Assembly (NCBI GenBank): GCA_040954595.2
Contig: CM082577.2
Coordinates: forward strand, 15,321,903-15,385,902
Length of the DNA stretch: 64,000 bases
From: Balanoglossus misakiensis
Taxonomy: Eukaryota; Animalia; Hemichordata
Direction of reading: 5' to 3'
Below are positions 821 to 40,983 of this stretch, piece after piece; positions within the stretch are counted from its first letter, which is position 1, and every line of letters begins with the position of its first letter. Made by a program: the position numbers and the translations under genes. The notes under the pieces are model-generated. The model did not search any database and was not told the origin of the DNA. It was given only the letters and a program-made list of their open reading frames with translations.

Positions 821-1753
821 TTGACCTGTGCACAACGGTTTGATATGGAATTGGCTACGCGAACTGCTTTCCTGAGACAACACAACATAGGTGTATTTCA
901 CGTGGATATACAGCACAAGTGCACGGGCCAGTGTACAATGTTGAATCCATACGGCGTGGGGATGCATTACATATGTACGACTTCATTGAAATATCACAAC
1001 TGTGACGCAGACAGCGATCGGGACTGCCTGTTGGTTTGCACCGACGAAGGTCAAATTTGTAAACTGACCGGCCATGTCATACAAGGTAGCCAGGCGGCAA
1101 ATGTTTATGTTGGCCTTGATAAACCAATGTATCCACACCCTTCCACCAGTTACGATCACAGTCGAATATCTGTGATACACAAAGACCAGAAAATGGAACT
1201 TTTATGTCACACGCTCGCTAGCACTATCTCAAAGTTGTTTCATGCAGACAATCGACGAAAATACAACCAGCTCACGAGGGTTCATTCTCGCTGCATCAAC
1301 ACAGCGTGCGCAAGGATAAAATGCGATCTATTAGAAGGACGTATGTCTTTTCCACAAGCATTACATCACCATATAAACAGTGCCGTGTACATTTTACATC
1401 AATTATTTTTCCCATACTCGCTGTTATCTACACTGGAAGCTTACGAGAGAAAAGTTATTTCAATTGTGTTGTCACACGTGCAAGGGAATCATGGTCGTGG
1501 CGGGGACATTTCCATCCTTCTGGGAAATCCAGAAGCGACAGTATTGTACATTACGAAATGCGTGCTCGAAGGTTTTGGATGCGCAGGCTCCAATATATTT
1601 GACCCGATTTTCCGGTACATGGGACCGATGCCTTTGGATCGTCATTTGAAAGAAGTGTTTGATATAAATCCGCATAAGTTAACAAAGTGTTCCAAAATAC
1701 TACAGGTAGTAATGACAAAATCATCGTGCATCCGAGCATTAAACAACATGTAG
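821..1753 (+). CDS. UL92/ORF31-like Cys-rich late transcription factor (likely start ATG 845)
   Basis: YICTTSLKYHNCDADSDRDCLLVCTDEGQICKLTGHV matches the herpes UL92 pattern YxC..HxCD..CxLVxTxEGxxCxxTGxV. Confidence 0.65.
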   Translation: MTCAQRFDMELATRTAFLRQHNIGVFHVDIQHKCTGQCTMLNPYGVGMHYICTTSLKYHNCDADSDRDCLLVCTDEGQICKLTGHVIQGSQAANVYVGLDKPMYPHPSTSYDHSRISVIHKDQKMELLCHTLASTISKLFHADNRRKYNQLTRVHSRCINTACARIKCDLLEGRMSFPQALHHHINSAVYILHQLFFPYSLLSTLEAYERKVISIVLSHVQGNHGRGGDISILLGNPEATVLYITKCVLEGFGCAGSNIFDPIFRYMGPMPLDRHLKEVFDINPHKLTKCSKILQVVMTKSSCIRALNNM

Positions 1754-3201: not shown

Positions 3202-3227
3202 AGTGTTATGGGTGTTGGCGGGACCTG

Positions 3228-9798: not shown

Positions 9799-10380
9799 CT
9801 AGTAGGCATCAACCAAGCATGGATTGAGTAGCTTCCTCATAAGTTGTCCAGTGAACTCTTCGTGGATGATCAAGCACGGAAGTCGATAGTCGTGGCAGAT
9901 TTCTAGGAATGTGGACTGGAACTTCTTGTGCACATCGGCTAATTTGTCAAGCGCTCTTATTTCATAGGGTCGACCACGGCTGACAATGTTTTTCTTACAA
10001 TAATCCCAAGCCATATCTTTGAACACAATTATGAATTTATCTAGGTGTCCAAAGGCAGCCCGTATCATATCTTTCTCTGTCAGTTGTAAGTTGTATGTTT
10101 GCCTGATTCGCGAAAATGTCAAGTGTTGAATTATACTAGAGTCACAGATTCGCCCCTTCGACATTCGCCCTTCCGAGTTCCACTGCAAATCGAGGGTGTG
10201 TTGGATGAATTGTCGTTGAAAATCACCCGGGTCAATTTCACCAGCATAGAAATCGGAAATTTTGGTCGAAAAAGATTCAGTAAATTCGGGTACACACTCA
10301 TATTCCAGCTCTCTGGCGACATAAAATGCATCGTGAGATTTACCGCAACCGATTGGGCCGTTAAGGAATATGGTGGCCAT
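9799..10380 (-). CDS. Deoxynucleoside kinase (dNK family)
   Basis: P-loop GPIGCGKS, VPE, FQRQF, lid RGRPYE. The usual D/ERS motif reads DSS. Confidence 0.85.
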   Translation of the reverse strand: MATIFLNGPIGCGKSHDAFYVARELEYECVPEFTESFSTKISDFYAGEIDPGDFQRQFIQHTLDLQWNSEGRMSKGRICDSSIIQHLTFSRIRQTYNLQLTEKDMIRAAFGHLDKFIIVFKDMAWDYCKKNIVSRGRPYEIRALDKLADVHKKFQSTFLEICHDYRLPCLIIHEEFTGQLMRKLLNPCLVDAY

Positions 10381-11499: not shown

Positions 11500-11505
11500 T
11501 CCGAA

Positions 11506-12274: not shown

Positions 12275-14173
12275 ATGGGTCGATATGGTTTGGCTCATAT
12301 TGTAACCGATGTCAAAAGACACGCTTCTGAAATTAGGGACCCTGTGTACGGCGTGCTTGCAGCGGACGTCAACAGGTGGCGATTAACAAAACTCCCTGTC
12401 CGATGGGAGCATGTACACGGGAGAGGAGAAGGTAGTGAGGACATTGGAAAGTCTTCTATACTATCGAGTAAGGGTATTGGTTACGTGAAAAACTGGTGGC
12501 TCGATTTTTCGTATCCAGGATCATATTTTGCAGTGGCCGTTTTATTGGAATTGGATGCCAAAGACTATATACAGAGTCCATTCTCTAGCGTGTTTAATAG
12601 CGTGTCATTGAGTCAAGATGCGAAGAATCGAGGGAAGTGCTTCGACATATCTCTAGTCAGAACTGGAGCAAGACATGGTACGCGTGCCTTGTTCTTTGAT
12701 GACCTCAATCAAGTTCGTTTGGCAAGTCGCAAATATTTTGGTTTAGACTCAACTTTCACGGATGTCGTAAGTAAATACAAAGCGATCCGCGGGAGATATA
12801 ACGCATACAGATCGAACGGTGGCTGCAGACTAAAGTATAAACGTGCAACATCCAACCAACATAATGTCAATATGGACGGTAGGGCGGACGGCAAAGCGTT
12901 GAATCATGAGGAACTGGAAATGACTAACCAGTTTACAAGTAAGCAAGATGCAGATCACGATACGCATGACACCCGAAAGGAAGGCGAAACACGACTGATA
13001 CACATGTTAGGACAAAATAATGAAAAGGCCACTGTCCATGAGAGGACAGACTCGCCACGCACTCCTGCACCTAACACTGAAAATTCGCTGGCTAAGGAGT
13101 TGGCGTTAGTCAGCAAATTGGCACAGAATCTTCCCAAAGAGGACGCTGTACAGTTGATGGAACTGTTTGAGAATCGGGACGAGAAAATAAATTCCATGGA
13201 CAATATGGCGTTGACCATGTCGTTACAAGTTCAGAAAATCTTGCAACTAGTCAGTAACATAATGGACGAACAAAACACACCGGAATCCAGGAAACGCAGG
13301 GATGATCTTATGGAACTCCGTCAAAAACTCACCAGAGAGCCCATGGATCAAGGTCATATAAACGCCTCATTTTCGAAACTTGGTGAATCATACCAAGACA
13401 TATCGAAGGAAGCAAACAAGGTTCCCAGAGCATCTATGGACGAGGCAGTCAGTAATAAACTGATCGACTACTATAAACGTGTTACTAACGTGCTCAAGAA
13501 GCAATCAAACCCGGATACAATAAGTGAATCCAATATGTCCTCTTTGAGTAAAGATCAACAGGAACGCATGGCTAGAATTAAACAACATATGTCAGAAAGC
13601 CCAGACATATACCAATACATACAGTCACTAGAGGCGGCAGTGGATAGTAGTCTACTCCAAGGTATACGTGAAAAATCCCCGCGACCACACGGTAGTCTGT
13701 CGCGTCATGCTGCGCAACAAAATGCTACCTATAGAGACCGCGACGATGGGTATTCGCCACATTATCACACGCAAAAAATCACGGGACCTAGTCAGGAGCC
13801 CTACCAACGGCGTCAACCAACGCATGAGTGTATGTGTGAGGATTGTCAGCCCATACGTCACACCAAATCTCCCCACCTGCAGAACCGACGCCAAGGATCT
13901 CCGCAAGACCCCATAAAGACCCATCAATCTAAGCACAATTCTGAAGCTATGCAACAGCGCAAAGATGCGACCCAGTGTGATCGACAGCAAGACTGTACTG
14001 CAAAATCGTGTCGCCAACCGGACTCCGAGGATAAAATCGACGCCAGTTTCAGTGGTCATTCGGAGCACCAACAGACATTCTGGAAATTGAGGAAGCCAAT
14101 AGTATACGATAATGATTTTCCGGAAGGATTTTGTGACGACGGACCACCAATAGTCAAGAGAATCAAACATTAG
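12275..14173 (+). CDS. Capsid maturation protease (assemblin/HK97 prohead type) fused to a scaffold-like region
   Basis: LPVRWEH (His), SVSLSQ (Ser) and FDISLVRTGARHGT (oxyanion-loop-like) in the first ~150 aa; coiled-coil/low-complexity C-terminus; upstream of the MCP. Confidence 0.7.
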   Translation: MGRYGLAHIVTDVKRHASEIRDPVYGVLAADVNRWRLTKLPVRWEHVHGRGEGSEDIGKSSILSSKGIGYVKNWWLDFSYPGSYFAVAVLLELDAKDYIQSPFSSVFNSVSLSQDAKNRGKCFDISLVRTGARHGTRALFFDDLNQVRLASRKYFGLDSTFTDVVSKYKAIRGRYNAYRSNGGCRLKYKRATSNQHNVNMDGRADGKALNHEELEMTNQFTSKQDADHDTHDTRKEGETRLIHMLGQNNEKATVHERTDSPRTPAPNTENSLAKELALVSKLAQNLPKEDAVQLMELFENRDEKINSMDNMALTMSLQVQKILQLVSNIMDEQNTPESRKRRDDLMELRQKLTREPMDQGHINASFSKLGESYQDISKEANKVPRASMDEAVSNKLIDYYKRVTNVLKKQSNPDTISESNMSSLSKDQQERMARIKQHMSESPDIYQYIQSLEAAVDSSLLQGIREKSPRPHGSLSRHAAQQNATYRDRDDGYSPHYHTQKITGPSQEPYQRRQPTHECMCEDCQPIRHTKSPHLQNRRQGSPQDPIKTHQSKHNSEAMQQRKDATQCDRQQDCTAKSCRQPDSEDKIDASFSGHSEHQQTFWKLRKPIVYDNDFPEGFCDDGPPIVKRIKH

Positions 14174-14207
14174 CGTGAGAGAATAATTTACAACACAGGA
14201 AGAAAGA

Positions 14208-15128
14208 ATGTCCATCAGAAACGCGCAAGTAAAAGCCCCTCCAGTTGAAGGCCCAGTGATTGCGCTTGAAGTAGACCGCACGTTCGTTTCACAAAACTTG
14301 GACGGTGCGAAGTTATCGGTCACTCAGGATGTGCTCTACCCGAGAGACGACAAGGTCACAATTGTACCGGGACAGGTACTGTTGGGACACAGGGATTTTG
14401 CTTCTAGAAAGTGGGGAGTTGTTCCTTCACCAGCTGGGCTCATGGCAAAGTCATTTGATATACATACTGGAGATATCGAAAAAAGCAGGCAGATGTGGGA
14501 GTTAGACCCACAGGCGTATAAGGTACTGGGTATAGCTTCGACCGAATCCACCGATTGGGAAAAGGGTCAGCTAATGTCGATTGTGTCAAAGTCACCCAGT
14601 ACGGGTTTTTTAAACACAGGAGGCAATTGGATAAGAGACGGACAACTTGTCTGTGTGCGTCTCCCAACCCACGAAGAAGCCAATCAACACTTGCATCGGT
14701 ATGGTTCGATCAAATTTGCCACCTATCCCCGCGACGATAACGACGTTCATTCAAATATATACGAGTTTATGGACTATCTAAGAATGGAAAAGGATATTGC
14801 TGTAGCAACAGGTCACCACAACAAAAGAGAATCGCTGAAAGCGCTCACCGAGATACTATCGCGTTCTGGGGAATTCATTTCGAGTCATATAGTGCCAGAG
14901 CCAAGATCCCGAGCACAATTCGACAACTGGAAGCGTACGGGATATATTTTCAACACTCCATTAACCCTATTCACTGATGAAGCGCACAGGATATCTTTGC
15001 AACATTTTCTCAACAATGTGGTCAAACTTGCCAACACAATTAGATCAAAGAACGACCTGATAATCTTAGGACTCGCCAGGCAAGATATACACCCTTACGA
15101 ATACGGGAGCATAGAACTCTACGTTTAA
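14208..15128 (+). CDS. Probable capsid triplex subunit
   Basis: 306 aa, between protease and MCP; beta-rich pattern VLGIA..NTGGNWIRDGQLV..P..LGLA..IEL recalls herpes/mirus triplex. Judged by eye only. Confidence 0.5.
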   Translation: MSIRNAQVKAPPVEGPVIALEVDRTFVSQNLDGAKLSVTQDVLYPRDDKVTIVPGQVLLGHRDFASRKWGVVPSPAGLMAKSFDIHTGDIEKSRQMWELDPQAYKVLGIASTESTDWEKGQLMSIVSKSPSTGFLNTGGNWIRDGQLVCVRLPTHEEANQHLHRYGSIKFATYPRDDNDVHSNIYEFMDYLRMEKDIAVATGHHNKRESLKALTEILSRSGEFISSHIVPEPRSRAQFDNWKRTGYIFNTPLTLFTDEAHRISLQHFLNNVVKLANTIRSKNDLIILGLARQDIHPYEYGSIELYV

Positions 15129-15797: not shown

Positions 15798-18700
15798 ATG
15801 CTGAATCCGTTCAGACGGGGTCAACCCAACATGAGCAGGCCTTTGATGACGTCTGATCTACTAAATTTTGACAATTTTTTTGCAGACGACGGGTCAAACC
15901 CGCCCTCTGGTCAGGGTCGATTCGGGGGAACATTCTCATCCAATCCAAACTATATCGGACATCGAAACCAGGGTCACACTGCCACAGACACCGATTGGGT
16001 TGCCCCGAAAGATGTCTTATTGAGTCAAAGGATATTATACGACTCGATCTCGCCTGATGAAGGCGTTGTTAAAGTGGGTGGTGATAGGTTGGCTTGGTTT
16101 TGTCCCATCGCTATTTTCAATGGAAGACCCAATTTTGCAATACAGGAAATCATCGCCCCGGCTTCAGTTGTAGATAAATGTACATCCGCGTCTACTCTGC
16201 CAACACTGGGCGTTGAAAAGCAGTCGAGACAGTATACCATGGATATGATGGGCGTTGCCATCAGTTTAGCTCCAGAGCTTATTCAAAGAGGGACTGTTAA
16301 CCAGATAAGGAATGCGTACAAACTCAAGGTCAAACAGGTGGTCGACAGTATCGCAATGACACTACAGGCAGTAGTATACAGTAATGTATTCGGTGGTCCC
16401 ACACTCGAATACATGGAGTTTCGCAGGATGGGCAACGAAAGAGATGTTTCTAGAGCTAACCTATTTTATGGTACATATCAGAAAAGAATCGACAATTTTC
16501 TACTATGGAACCTGGGGCGAACAAACAAGAAAGCTGTGTTAATTGACTTGGATAACTGTTTGAATTACAGTTCGAACAACGACGGTGATGCCGACACAAT
16601 AATATGTCACCCTGTCGTCGCAGGTGTCTTGAGGGAAACTGTCGCGCCTAATCTAGGCACGCAAGAAACTCGAGAAACCTATTTTGTGAATACGTCTGAT
16701 AATCACATTGTGTATAATCACCATCTTCAACCAGACCCAAACCTCTCCCACCAAGTTCATGCTCCAAATTTAAGAACAATAGTTAATGCAAAAGTTAAGT
16801 ACATTATTCCCTGTCCGGATGTACGAATAAACAATGTCAAGTCGAATCTCAGTGAACTCGAGGCCAACTTCAAATCGTTTAACGTTATAGGATATTGTCC
16901 ATTACTGCAACAAATGGGTAGTCTACTGGACTTCAAACAAACCACATCTGTGGATTGGAATTCCATATACGTTACCGACTTTGAGAAACGATACGATTCG
17001 AGGGTTACCTTGGACGAGGTGATGGAACAGGGTGGTTATTTTGTACCAGAAACATACAACGCGAGTTCTTATAACAATCTATTGAGAAGTGCAGACTTTA
17101 TTGAATTGACGACCATAACACCAGCCGAGTATTATCGATCATGCACAATGCCTTTCACTGGAAAGGAGAAATCCTGCTTGTTAGATCCTAGTCGAAAAGT
17201 GTATTATGACCCGGACAGACAAACATTTCTACCCGCGTTCACTTATGGACACAGCAACGTGAGCACCTGTCCCGTCGACAGGGGTGACATTGTCGCCGGT
17301 ATGACGTTCATGTCCAGGACAATGGTTGGCCTCGGAGAGCATTGCGACGAGGAATTGTTATGCAACTATGTAAGAGACTGTCTGTCGCTGGAATGGTCTC
17401 AGGAGGATTTCGACACCCTTATGCTGTTTGATCGCACACCGTTTCACGAGGCAATGGGCGATGTGGCAGAAGTTGGCAATACCAGTGATGGGAATGGAAG
17501 TGGAGAAGGTTCAGGTAGCCAGGGGACATTGGCCCAAAGGGTTATCAGGGACGTCACTTCTCATAGTGGCGCCACACATTTTACCAATTACGATCAATTG
17601 CTAATCGTCCGTCATATTTGTCAGCAACGCAGATGCATCGATCGAGAAAGAGAGGAAGGTGGTCGTGCAGGTGCTACCGCTATGAACGCATTAGACTGCG
17701 CAATTGTCAACATTACTATGATTATAGAATGGGTAGACTTACTCTATGACAAATATAAAACAGTAACCAAATCCAGGCCAGATACTACACACAGTTGGTT
17801 GTTCACGCCATTGGGTCATGAGACTCTACAAAAAGTATTTCACGATGACCGCCTAGATGAAGCGGATGAGAGAGATTACACGCATATGTTACGCAACAAG
17901 GCTGCTCTGTACCACAATGTATTTCTGAGAGCATTTTCGCCGGTTGTATATGTTGCGGGAAATTCTTCTTTAGACGAAGCTATAGAGGCCGGCATCGTGA
18001 ACGTTGTGGGGCTGGGTGACATTACACTGAACGAGGAGGTTTATCATTACAATTGTAACTTTAGTACATATTCAGCCAGGCGGACATTCAATACTATAGC
18101 TGATTCGTCATTCATACGCCCCAAGCAAAGATTTGTTATCTCCGATTTGAGTCCATTGCACTCATACAACAATGACTCTCCTGTCGATGCGGAACACTTT
18201 CTGAACCATAACTATTCCTACAGGTTGTCATGGATCTGCAGTTCGTCATACAGTCTCATGATCAAGTGTTTTACCATGATTTTCATTAGCATGTTACAAA
18301 ACCCAACCACTACTAGAGCGTTAGCAAAAGAAGGGATATATTTAAACACGGCGTTTCTTTTGTTCAGAAATGTGGTACAGCGGACATGTAGCATCGCCAT
18401 GGCGCGATCTGGTAGAGAGAACAGGTTCTTGTTTTGTGGCAATAGCACTACAAATAGTTACCATAGTAATGCCACCAGTTATGTGACGAATTGTCGTTTC
18501 GAGACAAATATGGTGGACTTCGACCCGATCAATAACACCAGGGTACAGTTGCACGTGGGAGGTCTGGGTTATAACAGGGGGATGGGTTCAAAAATTAGGG
18601 ACCCGTTCACGGAGGGGACGTCCGATGGTAGGGGCGACTTTGTTGTTGTACCTATGTGTCCGATCGTAGATGTTGGGCTCTGGAATCACATTCAACCTAT

Positions 18701-19265
18701 GAACGGGCGAGTTACGTTCGAAGATGGTAATTCAAACAAAAAGGCCACGAGAATAGACACTGTCCAAGGTATTTACACCAATAATCCGTGGTCAACGGCT
18801 GGACTGTCAGAGGCTCAGATTATACATGGTAACATGCGACATCCCTTATGGGTTCACAATAGTAACAAGCACGGGACGTTCAAGTGTTTCTTACAGGCCA
18901 AGACACCGTCACCACAATACCAAGTTGGTATTGATGAATTTTATAGGCCCATAGATTCCAATGGTCTACAGAGAGAATCAAACATAGCTGTACAGGGTAG
19001 GCAGTACCACAACAACATTGACTGTCCATACGCTTTCAAGACTCTTAACAGAGGGTTTTATGGAATGGACGAAAATAGTAGCAATCGCTTCCAAGACGCC
19101 CTCAACGTCTCCACCGTTCGTGATGACGAAGGTTTACATCTGATGGATCCAATCACGATTCAACCGTCTGTCAAGAGAACGGACAAGTACTACGCAGAGA
19201 CTGGAATCCGTAAGAAATTCAAGCCAGACGACGCGTCGCGTCAACACAGACTAATACCTATTTAG
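15798..19265 (+). CDS. Major capsid protein, HK97-fold floor with large insertion (herpes/mirus type)
   Basis: 1155 aa, clustered with protease and triplex. N-terminal E-loop/spine-helix-like segment (QYTMDMMGVAISL..YKLKVKQVVDSIAMTLQAVVY) and DTIICHP. Confidence 0.7.
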   Translation: MLNPFRRGQPNMSRPLMTSDLLNFDNFFADDGSNPPSGQGRFGGTFSSNPNYIGHRNQGHTATDTDWVAPKDVLLSQRILYDSISPDEGVVKVGGDRLAWFCPIAIFNGRPNFAIQEIIAPASVVDKCTSASTLPTLGVEKQSRQYTMDMMGVAISLAPELIQRGTVNQIRNAYKLKVKQVVDSIAMTLQAVVYSNVFGGPTLEYMEFRRMGNERDVSRANLFYGTYQKRIDNFLLWNLGRTNKKAVLIDLDNCLNYSSNNDGDADTIICHPVVAGVLRETVAPNLGTQETRETYFVNTSDNHIVYNHHLQPDPNLSHQVHAPNLRTIVNAKVKYIIPCPDVRINNVKSNLSELEANFKSFNVIGYCPLLQQMGSLLDFKQTTSVDWNSIYVTDFEKRYDSRVTLDEVMEQGGYFVPETYNASSYNNLLRSADFIELTTITPAEYYRSCTMPFTGKEKSCLLDPSRKVYYDPDRQTFLPAFTYGHSNVSTCPVDRGDIVAGMTFMSRTMVGLGEHCDEELLCNYVRDCLSLEWSQEDFDTLMLFDRTPFHEAMGDVAEVGNTSDGNGSGEGSGSQGTLAQRVIRDVTSHSGATHFTNYDQLLIVRHICQQRRCIDREREEGGRAGATAMNALDCAIVNITMIIEWVDLLYDKYKTVTKSRPDTTHSWLFTPLGHETLQKVFHDDRLDEADERDYTHMLRNKAALYHNVFLRAFSPVVYVAGNSSLDEAIEAGIVNVVGLGDITLNEEVYHYNCNFSTYSARRTFNTIADSSFIRPKQRFVISDLSPLHSYNNDSPVDAEHFLNHNYSYRLSWICSSSYSLMIKCFTMIFISMLQNPTTTRALAKEGIYLNTAFLLFRNVVQRTCSIAMARSGRENRFLFCGNSTTNSYHSNATSYVTNCRFETNMVDFDPINNTRVQLHVGGLGYNRGMGSKIRDPFTEGTSDGRGDFVVVPMCPIVDVGLWNHIQPMNGRVTFEDGNSNKKATRIDTVQGIYTNNPWSTAGLSEAQIIHGNMRHPLWVHNSNKHGTFKCFLQAKTPSPQYQVGIDEFYRPIDSNGLQRESNIAVQGRQYHNNIDCPYAFKTLNRGFYGMDENSSNRFQDALNVSTVRDDEGLHLMDPITIQPSVKRTDKYYAETGIRKKFKPDDASRQHRLIPI

Positions 19266-19617: not shown

Positions 19618-20412
19618 GAATTCTCAAGGCATGAGTGTATTGTATTTACAATCGTGACGTTACTGGTTACCGACTCACCCTCTCCAGACAAGTGACGCAC
19701 ACGATCACGGCCAGTATGTATGGCAGGAAATCACACGCATTAATTCCCGAATAAAATTTGGGATAACGATTATTTAAAACGGAATGCTTGTTTTGAGAAA
19801 GCTGCCCGTCTCGCGCATAAAAGTTCAACATATTTGAAATATCTTAAATAAAAGTGAATAAGCTTTCAATATATATATAATGACAACAAAATGGTTTAAC
19901 ACGTAACAAAAATATAAATTCTGTACAAAAATTCATGAATTCTTGTCAATGAATCTCAGATATAATAAATAATGTCTATACAGCGTGATTTTGATTGTCT
20001 TTTCCATGTAACGTAAATACCACAACGTAGTTCTTCTCCAGGCGATGGGAAAATATAGTCTCTTGCCATGGACGAGCGAAATTTAATCTATCAGGGAAAT
20101 ATATCTGCTCACAAATGCGCGCCATATTGGGTGGCAAAGCGCGTCGTCGTCATCAAAAGTGGAAATCAACACTAGAACGTGAACATCGCTTTTGATGTCC
20201 GTTTCTCGAGTCACAGTTTCAAGTCTGAATACTCCAACACGACATATTAAAGCTCTGTCTCTTCCACCTCCAGTTTTGATTGTATAAACATCGTCGCGTC
20301 CGATGGCGCGATCATTTGGTGCAGCGTTCGGTCGGGTGCGAAATTTTCCCTTCAAGACGGTGTGATTTTTTTCCTCATACTAATTCTGTGTAACTACGAG
20401 TCTTGGCTGTCA

Positions 20413-20898
20413 TTATGAATACGATTTCAGTTCGGCAAAAACTTCTGAAAAATACGTACTCTCCTTGTTTATCCGTAACATGTTGGCACTACAGTCATTT
20501 ATAATTTTCAGGCTTCTGTCCCCGAATCTGTCTCTGTCGTCTTCAACTAGGAACGGTTTTAGCGGATAACTGATCTCGTTGCCCACGTAACTATAGGATA
20601 AGTACAGACATGTGAGCACGACGGCTTGTAGCTCAGACTCGGAGGTGATTTTGTCGTCGACAAAGTCCCGACATAACATGTACACGAAGACAAGGTTTGC
20701 CGGGGTGATGAAGGCAATGTCCTGCCACCCTTGCAAGAGCAGGGACCTGTCCACTGATCGCAGCCACATTATGGCATCGTTGCCTTCGAAGTCCCGCAAG
20801 CAGGAGCATCGCCGACTGAGGAAATTTCCCAGACACTTCAGCAGTTCTCCGGTGGACGCTTGGATGGTTTTCTTGGTGTTCGGCGTTTTCACCGCCAT
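20413..20898 (-). CDS. CDK5R1: CDK5 activator p35 homologue reduced to the activation domain (p25-like)
   Basis: [58 protein letters not shown]. Intronless; in-frame stop just upstream of accATGg. Confidence 0.95.
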
Positions 20899-20937
20899 GG
20901 TGTATTATTTGCTGACCCTATATTGGCAAGCTTCACA
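20896..20937 (+). repeat. Second copy of the 42-bp LTR-like repeat (1 mismatch), overlapping the p35 start codon
   Basis: catggtgtattatttgctgacc(t/c)tatattggcaagcttcaca at 19556 and 20896. Confidence 0.9.
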
Positions 20938-22288: not shown

Positions 22289-22867
22289 ATGACAGAACAA
22301 ACGTCAATGTCGTCTCAATTAGACCCCGAAATGTGTATTTGTCGCATATGCCAAGAAGGTGAATCGTGTGCTGAAGGCGGCATGCTTTTGATTGCACCTT
22401 GTTTATGCAAAGGTAGTCTGAAGTTTGTCCACCGTAGGTGCATCCAAACCTGGATAAGAAGCGCTCGTATCAACCGATGTGAAATTTGTAATGCACGCTT
22501 CAAAATCATGGTTGAGACTAGACCAATATCAGAATGGACATTGCCGAAGATGACCAGAACGATATGGATAAATATTGCACTTGTGTTGTCGTGTACTGTG
22601 TGTATATTAGGCATATCATTACACATGCACCTTTTGGTGGAATCCCTATTTCTAAAGATGGATGCACTGAATACATTTTTCGTGGTGGCTTGCGTGTTGC
22701 TGGCACTTATGGCGCTGACTGCATTTGTCCTCCTAGAGACTTTTAGGTGCGTGGACGTGTATGTGTGGTTAAGAGAGAACAACAGAGAGATAGGTGTTAA
22801 GGACTATTGCCCATCTTCTCAACAAATACATGGTGGTGATGAAGACATACGCACGAATACGGTGTAG
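22289..22867 (+). CDS. MARCH/K3/K5-type RING-CH E3 ligase with two TM helices
   Basis: CRIC..LIAPCLCKGSLKFVHRRCIQTWI..CEIC followed by two hydrophobic segments. Confidence 0.9.
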   Translation: MTEQTSMSSQLDPEMCICRICQEGESCAEGGMLLIAPCLCKGSLKFVHRRCIQTWIRSARINRCEICNARFKIMVETRPISEWTLPKMTRTIWINIALVLSCTVCILGISLHMHLLVESLFLKMDALNTFFVVACVLLALMALTAFVLLETFRCVDVYVWLRENNREIGVKDYCPSSQQIHGGDEDIRTNTV

Positions 22868-24734: not shown

Positions 24735-27700
24735 ATGCCCACTTGTCTGTGTCCATCTTCGTATTTATATTGCAATTTTATCACGGGTCAGAGCCTTATA
24801 ACGTTAAACCTGGTCATGAATGTAGGAAGGCGGCGTGTTTACCTGTTAAAACTAGAAGTCAAAGGGAGAGGAGTCAACGCATCCGACCTCTGTACCATCT
24901 TCGGCAAACTTCCCAATGGGCGTAGTATCGCGTTGGACATACTCGACCCAGTATATAGGATTTATTTGAATCCCATCAACGAGGTTAGGGACGAGGAAGA
25001 AGTGTGCGCCCTCATTCATCAGTATACCAGCACGTTTTCCAATAACTTCAGCGTTGGTAAAACGTCAAAGGTAATCGGCAATGGTTACGCGGGGGATTCT
25101 CGACTGCCATTTTGGTACGTCGAGTCGTCGGAAAATGCGGTTGTTAAACAGGTGCAAAAAAATCTACCACGCTCCATTTTCAATTTTTTTATGGACGGCT
25201 GTGGAAAGGCCTATTTGGACGTAGCGGCCAATATGAACATCGGGGGTGTTGGTTGGCACTGGATTAAGTCGTCAAGATACGTAACGGGATGCAAATGCCA
25301 TTCGTGGTATGGCAAAGAACATGATCATGCCACTGTGAGTGATACCCACTCCATTGAGCCCCAACGAGAAGGCGAAAGTAGTCCACCACCACCCATTAAC
25401 ATTCTTCAACTGAAAGTTCATTGCTATCCAGACGGTGTAATCGCATTTATTACCTGTTCGTTGTTACGATGGGCAAAAGATTTGACTTGTCTGTTTAATA
25501 ATACATTCCGTAATTGTACCGTTGTGAAGTTTAGAACCACGATGTATGGTGGTGATATCTCAAATGTAGTAAATTGCAGGGATGAAGGTAATGTGTTACG
25601 CGCATTCACCAAAATCATCACTACCTGTGACTATGACTTTTTATGTGGATATTTTTTGGAAAAGGAACAGTTAAGAGTGTTAAAGGAGAGAAGTTGTCTT
25701 CACGGGCTCAACTTGATAAACCCTTTATTAATCAGGGATATTCGCCACACGCCTTTCATCAACAGGTGGGATAATGACCCACGCGGTATTGGCTTGATCG
25801 ACATATGTACTGACAAACACGCGGATGGTCCGGACGCCTACAAATACATCAAAGACACTGTATTTAACAAAGGCTTCCTGAACACATACTTATCAACTTG
25901 CGAAGCGGCTACTATATTCTGTAGCCGACTAACTCACAAGAAGTCAAATGTAGATATTATACAGGTACCATACATGGATTTTTTTGAGTCAGCTATGACT
26001 CGTAAGGCTAAACAACTTGGGTACGTCTTTGCATGCAGGGAAATCGGAGGAAGCAATGCGACGACGAGTCATTCTGAATATGAGATTGAAGCAGATCGAG
26101 GTCAAGGTTGTCAAGGCGGTTTGTTTCTCACGCCGGTTCAAGGGTTACACGTGGGCAATGCAGAATTGAGAGATTTTAAAAGCATGTACGGTTCCATAAT
26201 AGTTGCATTTAACATCGACATCACCACTAGTTTGCAAGAATCACGCGCGGGTTTATTAAATGATGTAATTGAGATACCAGGTGGCTACAACTTTGTTAGC
26301 CCAAATGTTCGGCAGGGGTTACTACCGTCTATAGTTTCAAATCTTGTCGCGCAACGGGAACACTTCCAGAAAATTGCCCAGAGCAACAACGAAAACGGGA
26401 GTTGGTACGAAATGCAACAAATGGCACGGAAACAATTGATTGTGGGAGCTTACGGAGTCAATTTACGTCAGAGTATATTCACAAGCCCGTGTGTGGCTAA
26501 GGCCATTACATCCACTGGTAGATTCCTCTTTGAACGGATGAGAGTAACAGCCGCGTCATTCACCCACCCACATTTATTGACGACACCCAGTGTCCTATTT
26601 GGAAATGCAGATTCTCTGATGACCAGTTTCCTGCCAGCACGTGAATTGTCTAACGTCGAATGGACCGAAGTTTTCATGGATATTGGACAGTGTTTCCACG
26701 ACGACATTCGTAAAGTAGTTCAAACCATGGGCGCGAATATAGATGCGCGTTTATTGCGGTTTGAGTCGAAAGGGCATGCAAAAATAGTAATGTGTACGAG
26801 TCGCAAACAACAGTATGTGATGTGCATTAGGTCAACTTCCAAAAAAGGATGTTGTTTAGTTGTCAAAGGGTTTGTATCGAACTCTACAAACTGCCATCCC
26901 TTGGTGAGAAACGTGGAAAGATGTATGCTGTCACTCCTGTTTGAAGGTCATGTATTGCTTAGGTCTGTAGAATCTGGGCAACTGTCAACACTTCACCCAA
27001 GTGAATTGTCCACACGCTCGCAACTGATATATGAAGCGTACGTAGCATCATCTGGGGTGTGGGTGAAGGTTGGAGATGCTATAAACCAAGATACTGGTGT
27101 TAAGAACTCCTTTCGTTTGCGAGATAATTTAGGCAGAGAATTGTGCGAACGCCTTTTTGACGAGGACGGCATTCCGATACTCACCACTGACAGACTCAGA
27201 GAAATAAGGTCTGAAGTGGAGACGGTTGTGTTGTACACGTTAAACAGAGTCATAATGTTGCAAGAAGACACGCACCTGTTGATAAAACATTTGCCACCGA
27301 ATGCTAACCCTGGTGCAAGGTCGACGTTGGAAAAACAATACATGCAATTTCACGGGAGATTGCCTTGTGATATATTATATGTGAATACCAAAGAAGATGG
27401 ACCAATGCACCCTCTTTTGGCTGTCTTCCAACAGAAAACACTAGAGACAGATGACACAATTGCATCGATAAAAAAGACCTTTATTGAGGGGGGTGACGAA
27501 GGTGGTCCGTATTCCATTATGAATGTTATGAGGCCCAACGTCAAGACATTACACGGAGTATTGTGCATGGAAACAGAATCAACTGTGCAAAATCAGTTAA
27601 GAGTACAAAGACAGTTTCGGAAACGATTCGATTCTGTCCTCGCTATGTCCTCTAAGAAAGTCGAACACCCCGTGTGCAATAATGAAGAGGAATATGTGAT

Positions 27701-28019
27701 GACAAAATTGTTGAATTTTACCAACTGTCCGGATTGTAAAGTTATCACTGTAGATCGAGCTAATCGCGACTACAACTACACCGACATGTTCGGAACTGAT
27801 GCGATAATCCGGAAGCATAATTTGGTTTTATTCAATGTATGCAAACAAAGTTCGCGTGTGTATTTCATATCCAATTGTAAGGATGTCCAGTGTGTAGGCG
27901 TATACAAATTTGCCACCTTGGTGAATCAATTGAAAATACTAACTGCACTTAAAAACAAGGAAGCAATGGTAAACAAAGTGTCAACTGTTTTGACTGAACG
28001 TCTCACGAAATCACAATGA
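24735..28019 (+). CDS. Family B DNA polymerase, Pol-delta-like layout, with degenerate exonuclease and polymerase motifs (likely start 24816)
   Basis: GGLFLTP..DFKSMYGSIIVAFNI; QMARKQLIVGAYG; FGNADS; VVKG; C-terminal Cys cluster. Confidence 0.85.
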   Translation: MPTCLCPSSYLYCNFITGQSLITLNLVMNVGRRRVYLLKLEVKGRGVNASDLCTIFGKLPNGRSIALDILDPVYRIYLNPINEVRDEEEVCALIHQYTSTFSNNFSVGKTSKVIGNGYAGDSRLPFWYVESSENAVVKQVQKNLPRSIFNFFMDGCGKAYLDVAANMNIGGVGWHWIKSSRYVTGCKCHSWYGKEHDHATVSDTHSIEPQREGESSPPPPINILQLKVHCYPDGVIAFITCSLLRWAKDLTCLFNNTFRNCTVVKFRTTMYGGDISNVVNCRDEGNVLRAFTKIITTCDYDFLCGYFLEKEQLRVLKERSCLHGLNLINPLLIRDIRHTPFINRWDNDPRGIGLIDICTDKHADGPDAYKYIKDTVFNKGFLNTYLSTCEAATIFCSRLTHKKSNVDIIQVPYMDFFESAMTRKAKQLGYVFACREIGGSNATTSHSEYEIEADRGQGCQGGLFLTPVQGLHVGNAELRDFKSMYGSIIVAFNIDITTSLQESRAGLLNDVIEIPGGYNFVSPNVRQGLLPSIVSNLVAQREHFQKIAQSNNENGSWYEMQQMARKQLIVGAYGVNLRQSIFTSPCVAKAITSTGRFLFERMRVTAASFTHPHLLTTPSVLFGNADSLMTSFLPARELSNVEWTEVFMDIGQCFHDDIRKVVQTMGANIDARLLRFESKGHAKIVMCTSRKQQYVMCIRSTSKKGCCLVVKGFVSNSTNCHPLVRNVERCMLSLLFEGHVLLRSVESGQLSTLHPSELSTRSQLIYEAYVASSGVWVKVGDAINQDTGVKNSFRLRDNLGRELCERLFDEDGIPILTTDRLREIRSEVETVVLYTLNRVIMLQEDTHLLIKHLPPNANPGARSTLEKQYMQFHGRLPCDILYVNTKEDGPMHPLLAVFQQKTLETDDTIASIKKTFIEGGDEGGPYSIMNVMRPNVKTLHGVLCMETESTVQNQLRVQRQFRKRFDSVLAMSSKKVEHPVCNNEEEYVMTKLLNFTNCPDCKVITVDRANRDYNYTDMFGTDAIIRKHNLVLFNVCKQSSRVYFISNCKDVQCVGVYKFATLVNQLKILTALKNKEAMVNKVSTVLTERLTKSQ

Positions 28020-28526: not shown

Positions 28527-31500
28527 TCACTTGACTGTTATCTGGTTTAGATTTTGGTCAAAGTTGTGACTCAACATAGATTTGACATATGGAACGAGAG
28601 TGGTCAAATTTCTTTTGCTTTTGGTGACAACGATGTACTTAGCACTCCCTTTAGTGAAGTCTATCAGATGCTCATTCGTTGACACAAAACAGAGCGGGAT
28701 CATTGCATCGTGCCGGTCTACAAATTTTACATTTCGAGTTTTACCCAGTAAAAGTATCAATCTGAACATAGTGGGTGTGGATGTGTTAGGGTCATGCGGA
28801 ATCACAACTGGATAAAACGTTGCGACTTTAGTAGTCGCATGCCCCCTACACATTGCAGCCACTCGACTGAATTTGTTTAGTTCGCTGTCTCGGTGTCCGT
28901 TGTCATCGCGGTAGCACATAAACTGCCTCGCCTCTTCTAACATGACCGAGAATGATGGTTGTGGGTCGAAAAAGTCTGTCATGATGTTCTTGAATAAACT
29001 GTCTGTGTAAGAAGGGAGTCGTCTGTAAGCAGACGACACAAACGAGACGAAAGGACGTCCGTTTATCGCTAAGTCTACATAGTTATCCCTACATGGCGCG
29101 TCGATCGTAACCCCTTTGCTTCGTAGCCGATGCGCTTCTTTCAATGCGTCCCTTTGTGTCTGTAAATACCGCACTATATCCTGGCTCTCCCTTAACTGGC
29201 GAGATAAATCGCGCACTGTAACCTCGTGTTTATCGCAGCCGTCATGCGCCTTCTTTAGTCTGTCAATTTCAGCAGCTCTCTCGGCAGACAACTGTCGAAT
29301 CGCTTTATTTTCCTTTCTCAGTGAGTTTACCAATGATTCCAAATCATGTTCGGATGAAACTTCCAAACATACTGTCTGCTCTATATTGGAGGTTTGGGAT
29401 CCGGAAGGATCAATCCTACTCGCTTGACTGTCAATCGCACGAACACCCAGTATTCCTTTGGCATTTTCTAGTTCTCGTAGGCTTTTGTCACGGGTTTCAA
29501 TAATCTTTTGTTGTTCTCTGATCTCGTTTTCAAAATGTCTCCTTAATTCGGCGATCTGAGATGTATGACTTTTTTCCATCACTTTAACTTTATTTTCTAG
29601 TAGCCGTTTATCGCTTGCAATTTCCTGCATGCGCCTGTCCCGTGCGATATAATATTCCGGGGACCCTGCCTGAGATTGACTATCCGACAAGTCACTATCT
29701 TGACCCTGCCCAATCCGGCTTTCGTCTCTAAAGGCCCGTGTATTTAAACTGTCCCTTTGTTCAGCTTGGATAAAGGAAGTTTCCAGCGAGTGTAATTTCG
29801 TTCGAAATTCACTATTTTCATCATTCAGGTCATTCGCCTTTCGTTTCCAGTCATTAAGATCGCCGATCGCATCGTCTAGCCTTAACTGAATTTCATTTAA
29901 TTTTTGTTCAAATTCCCTTTGCTGCATAATGTTGTCTTCATTATTTCGTGCGACTAGTTCGACTTGCTCAAGCAGCTTGTTGCGCAAGGCTTCGTTCTCC
30001 GATACGAGGCCAGCATTCTCTTTTTGTTGTAACTCGTTTGACTTGACCGTGGATGTTATTTCAGTATTCTTGTCGCCAAGTTCTCGAGATATTTGTATAT
30101 TTTCCTGACGGAGATTACGAAATCGACTATTTGTATCATCAAACTGACGTCTAAGTGACTCCAAGTCCATACGGAGCTGTCGATTGTTTGTCTCCGTCTG
30201 TCGATGTTGTTTGCTAAGTGCGTCTACATGTTCGTTTGCTACCACGACTTTGTCTTCCAGTTGGTCACGATCACGCTGGTACATATCACGCTCGATTCGC
30301 AGTTGGGCTATCTGTTTGTACGTGATGTCTGCTGTACTCTCCGCCTTCGCTTTCATATCCTGATTGTCTGACTTCAAGGTCTCAATTTCCTCCCTCAAAT
30401 CGTCAACTTCTGCATTTGCTTCATCTAGTTGTTGTTTTAAGGCATTTCTGGTGTCCACAGACTGCCGAACTTTCATTTCTAAAGTATCAATCTCTCTCCT
30501 GGTTTTGGACTCTTTCTCTTTAAACTCTCTCAAACTTTTGTTGTCACTTAATGATTGTGAATTCAGTTCCTGTAACTTCTCTCGCTGTCGTTGATTATTC
30601 TGTTCTGATACGGCCTTTTCGTGAACGAATCGCTCAATTTTCTTGTTCAAGTAGTCGTTTTCTTCTCGTATTGCGTTTTCCTGTTCGGTTCTTTTTGAGA
30701 TTTCAGCGCGCATTTGATTATACTCCATTACCTTTTCATGTAGCTCAGCCTTTAAACGCTTTGCTTCACCCATGTAACGATTAGTCTCTCCATCAATCGA
30801 CCCTGACTGTTTCCCTCTACCATTCGATTGCAGTTGTTCATTCTCGACCGATAGCTGGTAAATTTTCGCCTGAGCGTTTTTGTTACTGACAAAGACCTCT
30901 GTCCGTAATTTACTACAGTCGATATTCAACCGGGTAACCTGGGCTTGTAACTTCTCTTCCGCTTCTTTTTGTTTGGAATTTGTTTCATTAGCATGTTGTA
31001 GACTGAGGCGAACATCCTCTAACTCGGTCTCAAATTTACGAATGTCTGACTGTCGTTCTTCTAATAAATTTTCTCTGATTTCCAATTTATGCTCTAAAGA
31101 GTCAACGACCGATCGCGTGTCCGTTAACTCCGTTTGTAACCTCTCATTGTCTTGTTTGAGGTTGGAACGTGTAGTATCATGTTGGACCTTTTGCGCATTA
31201 AGATCCCCTTGTAATTGGTTCTTTTCAGAGACCAATGCGGACAACTTAGTTTCTAGGCGCCTAATTTGGTGATTCAATTGTTCATTTGCGGCTTGTTCCT
31301 TGTGTAGAAGCTCCTTGGTAAATGCATTCTCACTAGACACACGCTTTACGTGTTGAGAAGTGTCTGTGAGATCACTGTCGATGGTATTCATTTTGGACGT
31401 GGCCGTCGCAAGTTGATCCTTCAGCGCATCAATCTCCTTCAACGCATCTGAAAGTTTCTGTTGGGTCTCCTCATGTTTATCGTGTCTTGTTGACAGACTG

Positions 31501-34500
31501 GTGTTTTGCTCAGAAACAAGTCGTTCAAATTCTCTTGTCCGTTCCAACAGTTGTCCGTTGGTCTCAATCAATTTCCTTCTGTCTTCATTCAGATCCACGA
31601 TATCGCGCTCGAGGTTTCGAATCAAATTAAAACTTTCATCATTGGAGCGTTCTATATCATCTTGCAATTTCTGTTTTATCGCCTCAATGTTGTCTAATGA
31701 CTTTCTCATACTTTCAAGCTCGCGCTGTTTCGCTCTGTTTTCTTCTTGAGTACGTACAATGCGTTTGGTCAACTCGCCATTTTCGTTTTCTGCAATTTCT
31801 AATTTTTGTTTGGCCATTTCCATAGCATATAGTGACTGTTTCATAGAGTCAAGCTCGCGCTGTTTCGCTCTGTTTTCTTCTTGGGTACGTACATTGCGTT
31901 TGGTCAACTCGCCATTTTCGTTTTCCGCAATTTCTAATTTTTGTTTGGCAATTTCCATAGCATATAGTGACTGTTTCATAGAGTCAACTTCTCGCTGTTT
32001 CGCCTCAACTAACGAATTTTGTTCTGTTTGTATACGTTCGATGTCCCGACTCAACGTGTCTTTTTCGTTCTCTACAACCACCAGTTCCCTTTTTGCCGCC
32101 TCTACAGTTTCTAGTGACTGTTTCGCACTTTCGACCGCTCGCTGTTTCGCCAAAACTAAAGTTTTGTTTTCTGCTTGGATACGTCCAATCTCTTCCACCA
32201 ATTTGGCTGCCTCATTCTCTGCACATACTAATTTCCCTTTCATATCCTGCATGTTACGCTTATCCGCTGTGATTAGTGCCTCGTTGTCCGCTTTAAGATG
32301 CTCAATGTCATTTTCTAAATTTTCTATACGCGCCAACAATGATTTTATTTTTTGTTTGGCGTCAGTTTGACTCGTTTGTTCAGTTTGACCGTCGTTGACC
32401 CCCTCCGATACACGAAGAGTTCTGCAATTTTCTTCAGATAGTTCCCCATTTACAGAAAGCCTACTGCCACTCTCTCGAGGTCGCGGCAATCTTATTGGTT
32501 CATAATAATCAGTAAGAGATTTCAAGTCATCCTCCAGTGTATCAGTTTCAGTACCGGATACAAGGGGTATGTCAAATATAGGATCCTCACCAACACTGGC
32601 GTTGCTGTTCGACGTATAGTGTATCAGTGACGGGGACATTGTTTGTGGTTTTGGAGTATGTAAGGTGTCGGGTGTATCGACTGGAATCTCAACAAGCGAA
32701 GGCCGGGACTGTTTAGGCGACGCATGTCTTGGAGGATGTAAGGTGTCGGGTGTATCGACTGGAATCTCAACAAGCGAAGGCCGGGACTGTTTAGGCGACG
32801 CATGTCTTGGAGGATGTAAGGTGTCGGGTGTATCGACTGGCCTCTGAACAAGCGAAGACCGGGACTGTTTAGGCGACGAGTACAAGTCGTCGAGGCCACT
32901 CGACGTATCTTGAGGACAGACTGTCTGTAACAGTGAAGTAATGGTATCATCGAAAGGCGCGGTAGTTGAGGGCGCCGTTCGTGGTTTAGGGACAGGTAAT
33001 GCCACCAGCGAGTCTGATGCAGGAGACGAAGTAGGCAACGATGATAGGTCTCTATGCTTAGTAACCTTCGAATCTTCTCGCGAGTCCAATGGAAGAGTGG
33101 TGCGTGTTTCTTCGGGGATGGTAATCTGCAAGGGTGTGGACGCTGATACCGGTGGGAATACGACGCCGTCAGTTGTGGAGGTGTCGACAAGAGAGGAAAA
33201 CTGCTCCCAATTGTCAATTTTCTCAAGGGGATGGTCGCCAGGGGTTTGCGCATTAGACGAAGATGTCGATTTGCGTGAGAGTGCGTCAGAACCATTTCCG
33301 TCCACTCGTGTTGGAACATTTTGTACTAATTCACTAACGTCTTCGCTGTGGATCAATTCCTGTAAACCGGAATATCCGCCACTGTCTGCTTGATTTACAT
33401 CTGATATAGCGGACGCCGTGTCTGAAGTATGTGTCATTTGTTCATCAGTGTCAACTACACGTATCGGGTCACTTGACTGGTCGTCGTATTGTTCTGTCAG
33501 TTCTGATAGGGATGCCTGGCAAATTTCCCCGGCTGGTTCAACATTTACAATGTTTTCAGGATGATACTCATATTCGTCTCTGTATCTGTCCAAAGTATTG
33601 TCAGTCACTCTGTCGTCGAACCCTCGAGGTGAAGGGTCCGTTTCAAGCACATTCTCGTATTGACTATTTGAAAAGTCAACGTATCTTTGGTCATTGTCTG
33701 ACAGAATGCCCGCATTGGCGCGTCCTGTCTTATATCTTCTATCCTCCGTAAACCTCGTGTCGCACAAAGCACCATATACAATGGCGACAAGATTACCCTC
33801 AGTGTGTCCACATTTTAGAGTCCCCTGTATATTATTACCAAAGAGTGTTGGTAAGTCATCTGTAGCATTATCTGCCAATAATTCTCTTAGGGCAGTTTGT
33901 TCTAAAGTACCACTTAAGACGTTATGTACATCTTTTTCGATTCGTATGAAACGTGCAAGACTCCTAAATAATTGATTAAAATTTATGTCCATGGACGTTT
34001 CTTTGTACTGAGCAAAAGTTGAATTAAGTGCCCGTGCAGCAGAATGCATGGCTACTCTCAATTGTTCAAACAATGGAATATTTATTGAGTCTGGTGTACC
34101 TAAACACTCTGGAAAGGTTGATAGGAAGTGCGGCTTTGTCTGGTGATCGTCGAATAAACCATTTATCAGGTCGAGCAGCTCGTTTCTATTCGTATGACTG
34201 TCGCTGGCAAGGTCCAAGATCGTTTCACAATTGGCGCACAAGTGACTCCACAGATATGGATATAAAGACAACACGCCCCAGACATTTGGAATTTCAGATA
34301 AGATTAATTGGAGTGTATGTTTTGACAGAATTATGTAAAACGTTGGCATTTGACTTTTGACATCCTGTTCGATATATTTAAAAAAATGATACATCGTACC
34401 CCTCTCATATTTCAAAAGCACACTGCACACATTCTCCAACCTATCCAAATCAACCTTTTCTATGCCTTCCACTACAAAGCTGTCCTCATTTTTAGCTAAA

Positions 34501-39963: not shown

Positions 39964-40983
39964 TTAAAACTCAATATCAGTAGTAAACTTATGATCTTCT
40001 TTGTTTCCAGAGCCAAACTTTCGATATTCGCTGACTCTTCTTTCGAAAAAGTTTGTTTTTCCATCAAGAGCGATGTTTTCCATAAAGGGAAAGGGATTGT
40101 CTACTTTATACAGTTTATCCACGCCCAATTCTCCAAGTAATCTGTCCGCCACAAATTCCACGTATTGTTTCATTTTGTTGGCATTCATCCCGAGCAAGGG
40201 TTCTGGAAGGCTTTCGTCGACAAATACCTTCTCGATCTCAGTACCTTCTTTTACAATGTCAATAACTGTGTCCTCGGGGGGTTTGTCTCGAAGAGGTAAT
40301 TTATGGTACATGAGACAAGCAAAATCGCAATGTAATCCCTCGTCACGACTGATTAACTCATTAGAATGACACAGACCGGGTAGAAACCCCTTTTGCTTTA
40401 ACCAAAATATACCGGCGAAAGCCGAAGAAAATAGAACCCCTTCGACCACGGCAAACGCCACCAGTCTAGTAGCGAAAGTAGACGCCTCGTCTTCAATCCA
40501 CTTTGAGATCCATTTTGCCTTTAGATTAATACTCGGTACGGTTAATACAGCATTAAAGAGTCTTTGTTGCTCTTGGCTGTTCTCGGCGTAAGTCTCTATT
40601 AAGAGTTTGTACATCTCCGAATGAATGTTTTCCATTGCTGTTTGAAAGTCGTAGAAATATTGGGCTTCCAATATGGTCACTTCACGAGAGAATCTATTGA
40701 CTAAATTCTCGGAGACTATCATATCGCTACTCGCAAAAAAGGCTAAGATCATTTTCACGTACATTTGCTGTGTCTCTGTCATGAGTTTCCACGTCATCAA
40801 ATCTTTACTAGTATCTACTTCACCTGGGACCCAGTAGGAAGACTTAGCCTTCTCATACATGTCCCACAGGTCATGGTGTTCAATATCTCTGACACAAAAC
40901 CGACGGAGGTCTATGGTTTTATTCGTTCCCTTAGATACAGCTATTTTTGACTGTACCTCACGGAGGATATTTGTCGCGTCCAT
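39964..40983 (-). CDS. RRM2: Ribonucleotide reductase small subunit, intronless
   Basis: FFASSD.IVSENL, ENIHSEMY, VEGVLFS, SRDEGLH, KTNFFERRVSEY. Confidence 0.97.
   Translation of the reverse strand: MDATNILREVQSKIAVSKGTNKTIDLRRFCVRDIEHHDLWDMYEKAKSSYWVPGEVDTSKDLMTWKLMTETQQMYVKMILAFFASSDMIVSENLVNRFSREVTILEAQYFYDFQTAMENIHSEMYKLLIETYAENSQEQQRLFNAVLTVPSINLKAKWISKWIEDEASTFATRLVAFAVVEGVLFSSAFAGIFWLKQKGFLPGLCHSNELISRDEGLHCDFACLMYHKLPLRDKPPEDTVIDIVKEGTEIEKVFVDESLPEPLLGMNANKMKQYVEFVADRLLGELGVDKLYKVDNPFPFMENIALDGKTNFFERRVSEYRKFGSGNKEDHKFTTDIEF

Follow-up and report, generated by a model that had tools for sequence, protein, structure and literature searches.

A probably active Pol delta-like DNA polymerase without proofreading, conserved in a virus group with no named relative among the search results

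The 64-kb window (the whole stretch of DNA analysed here) carries a gene for a DNA polymerase of family B (PolB) that is conserved and is probably an active Pol delta-like polymerase without proofreading; the searches turned up no named relative of the virus group to which it belongs. The reading that we favour, at roughly even chances, is that of a Pol delta-like viral PolB that is devoid of the proofreading residues, retains those that bind metal and dNTPs, likely continues to make DNA and likely serves the virus as its replicase. The pattern of kept and replaced residues is common to distant relatives, which makes a working polymerase without proofreading, and not a dead scaffold, the likely interpretation. 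Taken separately, DNA polymerisation by this enzyme seems rather probable, whereas the joint claim that it polymerises and is the sole replicase is evenly poised.

The gene is contained in an uninterrupted open reading frame (ORF; positions 24735-28019, + strand) of 1094 aa from the first ATG. This in-frame ATG at 24735 lies 81 nt upstream of 24816, and the second ATG, at 24816, is the probable start because the relatives start at the matching Met, and it coincides with the start given in an earlier note on this DNA; residue numbers are counted from it. The ORF matches the Pfam DNA_pol_B family (E 3.5e-20; PF00136 score 72.7 bits against a cutoff of 23), and its top PDB sequence match is yeast Pol delta (E 3.6e-14). 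The earlier note had described the ORF as intact and it is indeed a single frame without stops or frameshifts. Assembly contigs of run X1 span it in a single 10.8-kb piece and no variant letters are listed inside it for the X1 or X2 contigs; since these contigs agree, a sequencing error is unlikely, although the check is not independent because X1 is perhaps the source of the window. Run X3 yielded no contigs over the gene, which says nothing about its expression. The features of the gene are listed below, with counts that refer to the 13-row clade alignment.

24816..28019, + strand: PolB gene, 1067 aa, with the probable start at 24816, where the Met of the relatives matches
24816..25385, + strand: N-terminal domain, Pol delta-like (phmmer against the yeast Pol delta N-terminal domain, domain E 1.3e-4)
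25392..25970, + strand: 3'-5' exonuclease fold without catalytic residues (DnaQ-like fold matches and motif census)
25410-25424, + strand: ExoI site, part of the catalytically depleted exonuclease fold
25647-25670, + strand: ExoII site, part of the same depleted fold
26172..26195, + strand: motif A, with the metal ligand D453 and the steric gate Y458 kept (both in 13/13 rows)
26346..26456, + strand: fingers, with R514 and motif B K539 and G547 kept and Val at the motif B Asn site
26598..26615, + strand: motif C, with Asn at the first Asp site and the catalytic second Asp, D599, retained
26802..26873, + strand: primer-template motifs of the KKRY and KG types, retained in part (K664, Y667 and G685 in 13/13 rows)
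26952..27158, + strand: beta-rich thumb-region insertion of approximately 70 aa, not in Pol delta (strands E713-E781, pLDDT 82-94)
27726..27893, + strand: C-terminal four-Cys motif C-x2-C ... C-x4-C, likely a Pol delta/zeta CysB metal site

Alignment to yeast Pol delta bears out the motif readings of the earlier note: DFNSLYPS of motif A pairs with DFKSMYGS (aa 453-460), KISANSVYG of motif B with KQLIVGAYG (aa 539-547) and YGDTDS of motif C with FGNADS (aa 595-600), so that the canonical YGDTDS and K-x3-N-S-x-Y-G are both absent from the query protein. The two metal-binding Asp residues that had been noted as retained are D453 and the second motif C Asp, D599, the first motif C Asp being Asn. 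In the exonuclease domain, FDIEC, the ExoI motif of yeast Pol delta, aligns to LKVHC (aa 199-203) and the ExoII position reads GYFLEKEQ; here, the alignment and the motif census concur with the previously suggested loss of the acidic residues. The ExoIII motif Y-x3-D is absent as well, with a shortened ExoIII helix and an ExoIII stretch approximately 35 aa shorter than that of Pol delta (142 vs 176-177 aa).

A word-index search with the query yielded two matches among 6911 candidates, namely an algal PolB whose Pol delta motifs are canonical and a protein, P0001, that is 47% identical to the query with 96% covered, contains the motifs DFKSMYGS, KLLIVGAFG and FGHADS and lacks the Exo residues. 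The same variants of motifs A, B and C are found in P0006 (approximately 32-37% identity to the query). Other copies thus carry the changes as well, and the outcome that the earlier note had named as refuting its reading, changes private to this copy, is not what is seen. A search of 1.84 billion representatives identified 540 proteins at E <= 0.001, and from the 150 of these matches that were listed, 12 full-length, high-scoring proteins with non-canonical motifs were picked by hand; two close fragments, P0007 and P0008, were excluded, and so were 14 near-copies obtained by cluster look-up. The resulting alignment (A4) consists of the query and 12 relatives, that is 13 rows, with a median pairwise identity of 18%.

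These 13 rows were placed in a midpoint-rooted IQ-TREE quick tree of 46 rows together with six Pol alpha-type, seven Pol delta-type and 20 other sequences, the latter hand-chosen from the search matches and with no PolB2 in the set. All 13 fall on one side of a branch with SH-aLRT support of 95, the query, P0001 and P0006 group together at 99, and the rows form three deep subgroups. The clade is set apart on a long branch and does not nest within Pol delta in this quick tree, a placement that is tentative. Given the long branches and the odd composition of three clade rows, long-branch attraction might contribute to the grouping, which is supported by features outside the palm that the rows have in common, namely the way in which the Cys tail is built, the insertion in the thumb and a G-x-G strand.

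Loci of the PolB or its relatives were sought in several other collections. Locus searches of viral contigs with the query, P0012, P0009 and P0164 found nothing, and neither the metagenome contigs searched with alignment A1 nor the genome contigs searched with P0012 yielded a locus. The clade alignment matched 17 loci in viral contigs (43-122 bits), and the 16 in which motif C could be read all belong outside the clade by motif and profile score. A word-index search with the clade alignment returned only P0001 and one Pol alpha (E 1e-30), and tblastn against phage records gave no match.

Both metal-binding Asp residues, the steric-gate Tyr and the motif B Lys are kept in all 13 rows, as are G547 in motif B and S600 in motif C, and R514 is kept in 12 of the 13 (Lys in the remaining one). 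Among the 110 acidic residues of the query, two are invariant in the alignment, and these are the metal ligands D453 and D599. Of 14 polymerase-site positions chosen beforehand (canonical motif positions, checked against P0002), eight are invariant, compared to 16 of 260 in the palm and fingers (hypergeometric p 7e-8), a contrast that is inflated because the relatives were found and chosen via their palm motifs. Other positions vary: the motif B Asn is present in 4/13 rows and replaced by Val in 9/13, the Tyr preceding the motif B Gly is kept in two, and the first site of motif C is Asp in 10 rows, His in two and Asn in one. The replacement of this Asp by Asn or His (3/13 rows) is confined to the branch of the query, and the adjacent Thr is replaced by Ala in 2/13. 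The earlier description of the motifs as eroded goes too far for the polymerase site, in which the metal and dNTP ligands are the best conserved residues of the clade. Identity between the query and P0001 declines from 73% around motif A and 55% in the palm and fingers to 41% in the Exo domain and 39% in the tail, as expected from selection on a working polymerase site.

The exonuclease motifs show the opposite pattern. The ExoII motif N-x3-F/Y-D is found in none of the 13 rows, and neither ExoI D-x-E nor ExoIII Y-x3-D occurs in any row at the aligned sites (two D-x-E and one Y-x3-D matches lie off these sites), whereas all three motifs are present in 3/3 Pol delta controls. In P0006 (745 aa), most of the Exo domain is gone. 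The fold itself appears to be kept in the query, with DnaQ-like fold matches of the predicted model over aa 193-385 (Z 8-10). With Exo motifs surviving in neither the query nor the 12 relatives, the sequences support the earlier suggestion that the polymerase lacks proofreading; that it would also be error-prone is a surmise. Exonuclease-free Dpo2 is reported to insert nucleotides with an error of 1e-4 to 1e-5 (PMC8764526).

The AlphaFold model of the query (pLDDT 82.9, pTM 0.82) displays the full PolB order of NTD, Exo, palm, fingers and thumb, a predicted fold that is biased towards Pol delta because 35 of the 50 rows in the input alignment were canonical PolBs, the other 15 being from the clade; a previous model built from two sequences (pLDDT 30.5) was set aside. 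Foldseek searches with the model retrieved Pol delta as the top match (E 6e-37), followed by HSV-1 UL30, and nucleocytovirus PolBs as the best named matches among viral models. When compared to 48,161 representative chains, the model was closest to E. coli Pol II, archaeal PolBs, human Pol delta and Pol alpha. The structural comparison with Pol delta and UL8 that had been proposed in the earlier note separates the two: human Pol delta aligns over 823 residues with Z 22.4 and rmsd 4.2, and a 747-residue chain of the HSV-1 helicase-primase, taken as UL8 on account of its length, ranks 19th (Z 11.9, rmsd 5.6, 568 residues aligned, 9% identity), below 16 active PolBs (Z 16-25) and two PolB fragments, with the inactive Pol epsilon module close by (Z 10).

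The catalytic subunit of Pol delta (PDB 3iay, 6s1m), along with Pol delta-like viral PolBs, is the best match in both sequence and fold, with the same domain order and, likely, a CysB-type C-terminal metal site in both. The query lacks all three Exo motifs of Pol delta and has other residues at the Asn site of motif B, the Pro site of motif A and the first Asp site of motif C; further differences from Pol delta are the thumb insertion and the 35-46 aa between the Cys pairs. The insertion is aligned in P0001, P0009 and P0011 and gapped in P0002, P0006, P0010, P0012 and P0013. The four-Cys pattern is present in seven of the 13 rows, the other six having no Cys tail. When the model is superposed on human Pol delta and on yeast Pol zeta, the aligned range reaches the C-terminal domains of these proteins, which fits the presence of the motif, and comparing the tails as profiles gave no significant match; the tail is a likely candidate for the CysB metal site. 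In Pol delta and zeta, CysB is described as binding an Fe-S cluster and the B-subunit (PMC7544198).

The polymerase gene is part of an element of dense, apparently intronless ORFs that occupies positions 1-59300, continues past the left end of the window and adjoins a 452-bp tandem array. The element may be integrated. The following genes bear on its identity.

845..1753, + strand: UL92-family late transcription factor (Pfam PF03048, E 8.6e-9)
9799..10380, - strand: deoxynucleoside kinase (Pfam PF01712, E 1.7e-6)
12275..15128, + strand: two genes, a candidate capsid protease-scaffold fusion of 632 aa and one of 306 aa (synteny with L001)
15798..19265, + strand: candidate HK97-fold major capsid protein (MCP), 1155 aa (Atlas lead)
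39964..40983, - strand: ribonucleotide reductase (RNR) small subunit (Pfam PF00268, E 1.6e-97)

Other Pfam matches in the element include RING proteins and an animal-type CDK5 activator. The 1155-aa ORF has Atlas feature matches of 0.91 to phage SU10-type MCP clusters, with recognition below the threshold of the tool, so that its HK97 capsid identity is a lead only. It presumably resembles the capsid proteins of mirusviruses. A search with this protein returned two matches and no named relative, an alignment-based PDB profile search was empty and viral contigs gave none. A 51% identical relative is encoded on L001, where homologs of the 632-aa and 306-aa genes precede the MCP in the same order. 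We take the 632-aa ORF to be an assemblin-scaffold fusion from its appearance, a likeness left unconfirmed by a PDB profile search with the protease alignment, which was empty. Such fusions are described as pan-Herpesvirales (PMC11565193). Atlas gave no usable match for the 557-aa ORF at 7128, and no Pfam, PHROGs or NCBIfam family match to terminase, portal or triplex proteins was found among the window ORFs scanned. With Mirusviricota and Herpesvirales, the element shares a likely HK97 MCP of approximately 1150 aa, a likely protease-scaffold fusion, a UL92-like factor, RNR and RING proteins; the described mirusviruses infect protists, whereas the element carries the animal-type CDK5 activator. 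Altogether, the element is likely to be a large herpes-like virus with an HK97 capsid and an animal host. More specifically, and at somewhat less than even chances, it could represent an undescribed family of herpes-/mirus-like animal viruses with a single Pol delta-derived polymerase that has lacked proofreading since the root of the family, one branch having also given up the first motif C Asp.

Under the interpretation of an active replicase, two-metal catalysis would rely on D453 and D599, another residue (Asn or His) standing in for the first Asp of motif C in the manner of archaeal PolB2, and the virus-encoded ribonucleotide reductase and kinase would supply dNTPs. The C-terminal four-Cys domain might dock a B-subunit, probably host POLD2, for processivity, and copying errors would either stay or be put right, be it by a separate nuclease or by the mismatch repair of the host. 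The mirusvirus orders without PolB are also devoid of RNR, according to PMC12768974, and the retention here of nucleotide-supply genes that are absent in those orders argues for virus-driven DNA synthesis. A precedent is provided by the archaeal PolB2 of Sulfolobus (Dpo2), which likewise lacks proofreading, was predicted from sequence to be inactive and later proved active; in the absence of both the exonuclease and the first motif C Asp, it is reported to be a robust polymerase (PMC8764526, PMC7390963). Where motif C would have its first Asp, Dpo2 has His and the present branch Asn or His, a change similar in kind (3/13 rows) in a different motif, that of Dpo2 being of the H-x3-D type. Furthermore, Dpo2 is a 555-aa cellular repair enzyme that works alongside a replicase, whereas the query is a full-length viral protein of the eukaryotic type, and the likeness is therefore likely to be convergent. 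Against the preferred reading, the Asn of motif B, the Pro of motif A, the Thr of motif C and part of KKRY are also gone from the branch of the query, which exceeds the site losses of most active PolBs; in addition, replication without proofreading would burden a large genome with mutations.

The enzyme could instead be active but auxiliary, a polymerase of the Pol alpha, Pol zeta or Dpo2 type that extends primers, mismatches or lesions, with bulk synthesis left to a canonical viral PolB elsewhere or to host Pol delta/epsilon. Pol alpha and zeta are exonuclease-dead, polymerase-active family B enzymes and the C-terminal domain of zeta, which has a CysB domain (PMC7544198), is likely of the same type as that of the query; both retain canonical motifs B and C, unlike the query. 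A dead Exo domain and an altered motif C also mark the extender Dpo2 (PMC8764526), and the element lies only partly within the window. We nevertheless consider an auxiliary role rather unlikely: a six-frame search of the 64-kb window with the clade profile, which covers approximately 59 kb of the element, found no second PolB, and none of the 13 rows, known as proteins and spanning three deep subgroups, could be tied to a canonical partner. A separate question is descent from Pol alpha, suggested by the GG before motif A and the dead Exo domain; this origin is not favoured because the Pol delta profile outscores the Pol alpha profile in 12 of the 13 rows, mostly by small margins. Alternatively, the polymerase might be on its way to loss, with weak or no synthesis in the three-member branch; it would then persist as an adaptor that binds DNA and brings Pol delta subunits of the host to the viral DNA, midway to the absence of PolB seen in Okeanovirales and Styxvirales. 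The graded losses across the clade (the largely missing Exo domain of P0006, the six rows without a Cys tail), the restriction of the first motif C Asp replacement to the query branch and the complete loss of PolB reported for nuclear mirusviruses (PMC12768974) are compatible with such a course, which we judge quite unlikely given that the metal and dNTP ligands are invariant amid varying neighbours and that RNR and the deoxynucleoside kinase are retained.

The UL8-like scaffold proposed in the earlier note, an inactive subunit of the helicase-primase, would suit a herpes-like virus with UL92 and a likely HK97 capsid, and the model does align to the presumed UL8 chain. UL8, poxvirus F12 and the C-terminal module of Pol epsilon resemble the query in combining the full PolB architecture with a dead exonuclease, in the herpesvirus and poxvirus cases likewise in a large DNA virus. 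To our knowledge, these three proteins are not detected by Pfam-level searches. UL8 (PMC12594203) and F12 (PMC4304020) are reported to have lost the polymerase catalytic residues, and UL8 also the central positive charge, whereas the query retains D453, D599, K539, R514 and Y458 and scores on DNA_pol_B. In addition, neither helicase nor primase was found in the window by Pfam, where the sole P-loop motif in a plausible context is that of the kinase. With these residues kept and the presumed UL8 far below active PolBs at 9% identity, such a role appears improbable. A decaying pseudogene of an endogenous virus, for which the adjacent tandem array and possible integration might speak, is barely credible: stops and frameshifts are absent, and the motif changes are shared with proteins at 47% and about 35% identity, which refutes this reading.

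Proofreading is generally considered necessary for large DNA genomes. A whole clade of viral PolBs in which the exonuclease is dead and the synthesis site conserved makes this need testable in nature. If the reading of an undescribed virus family with a single such polymerase is true, that family would be a lineage of large DNA viruses with no proofreading of their own, and perhaps a surviving link between duplodnaviruses that encode PolB and those that do not. The finding also points to a deep group of viruses, likely HK97-capsid viruses that infect animals, and the searches returned no named relative of this group. No report on exonuclease-dead PolBs of herpes-/mirus-like viruses was found in the literature searched, which excluded most subscription journals; in the excerpts available, the mirusvirus screen of PMC10827195 left out animal assemblies and PMC4889955 is silent on proofreading. 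After archaeal PolB2, the clade might provide a second natural case of how far motif C can vary in a working family B enzyme. Variation at this motif is also seen in a viral PolB on L016, which contains GHTDS alongside intact Exo motifs.

In the predicted model of the PolB, the thumb contains a confidently modeled beta-rich insertion (window positions 26952-27158) that, in sequence comparison within the clade of this protein and its divergent relatives, is common to the query, P0001, P0009 and P0011 and is missing from P0006, P0010, P0012 and P0013. This insertion might be a processivity or partner-binding module. A His at the position of the first Asp of motif C is also present in two viral PolBs outside the clade, as read in the ORFs located at about 8660-11200 of contigs L008 and L016; the L016 polymerase keeps all three Exo motifs.

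Nine ORFs of the window, located within 8999-19265, 28527-35267 and 53346-58392, have relatives on L001, a metagenome contig of 15.9 kb, to which they are 33-54% identical. The order of the genes for the likely protease, a 306-aa protein and the likely capsid protein is the same in the window and in L001, and PolB was not found on this 15.9-kb contig.

Several other genes and repeats of the window were identified:
2305-4333 and 22289-22867, a tandem pair of RING-finger paralogues, plus a membrane protein of the RING-variant type, MARCH/K3-like (Pfam)
20413-20898, minus strand, 161-aa CDK5-activator ORF (Pfam E 8e-87)
41213-42026, inverted 36-nt arms (94%) with short direct repeats and C-runs between them
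46966-48462, DUF4419, Pfam match divided between two successive ORFs
58459-59277, ORF of 272 aa that matches a PD-(D/E)xK nuclease weakly (Pfam YhcG_C, E 0.034, under the cutoff)
59333-64000, tandem array holding 10.3 copies of a 452-bp unit that are 99% alike

Of the CDK5 activator, a protein of animals, the ORF found here covers the cyclin-box part only. The gene lies within a 1.3-kb piece (19556-20937) that is bounded by 42-nt direct repeats and looks like an animal gene captured recently; positions 19610-20895 are matched by a contig assembled from sequencing run X3, with 25 letters different. The RING-finger paralogues and the MARCH/K3-like protein are likely ubiquitin ligases with host targets, and the 272-aa protein is a candidate viral nuclease. 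The DUF4419 match may be divided because the gene has an intron, carries a frameshift or is broken.

The inverted-arm structure may be origin-like or a small transposon. The 452-bp array, which begins directly after the (TA)n run closing the gene-dense region, may represent either a host satellite or a viral terminal repeat.
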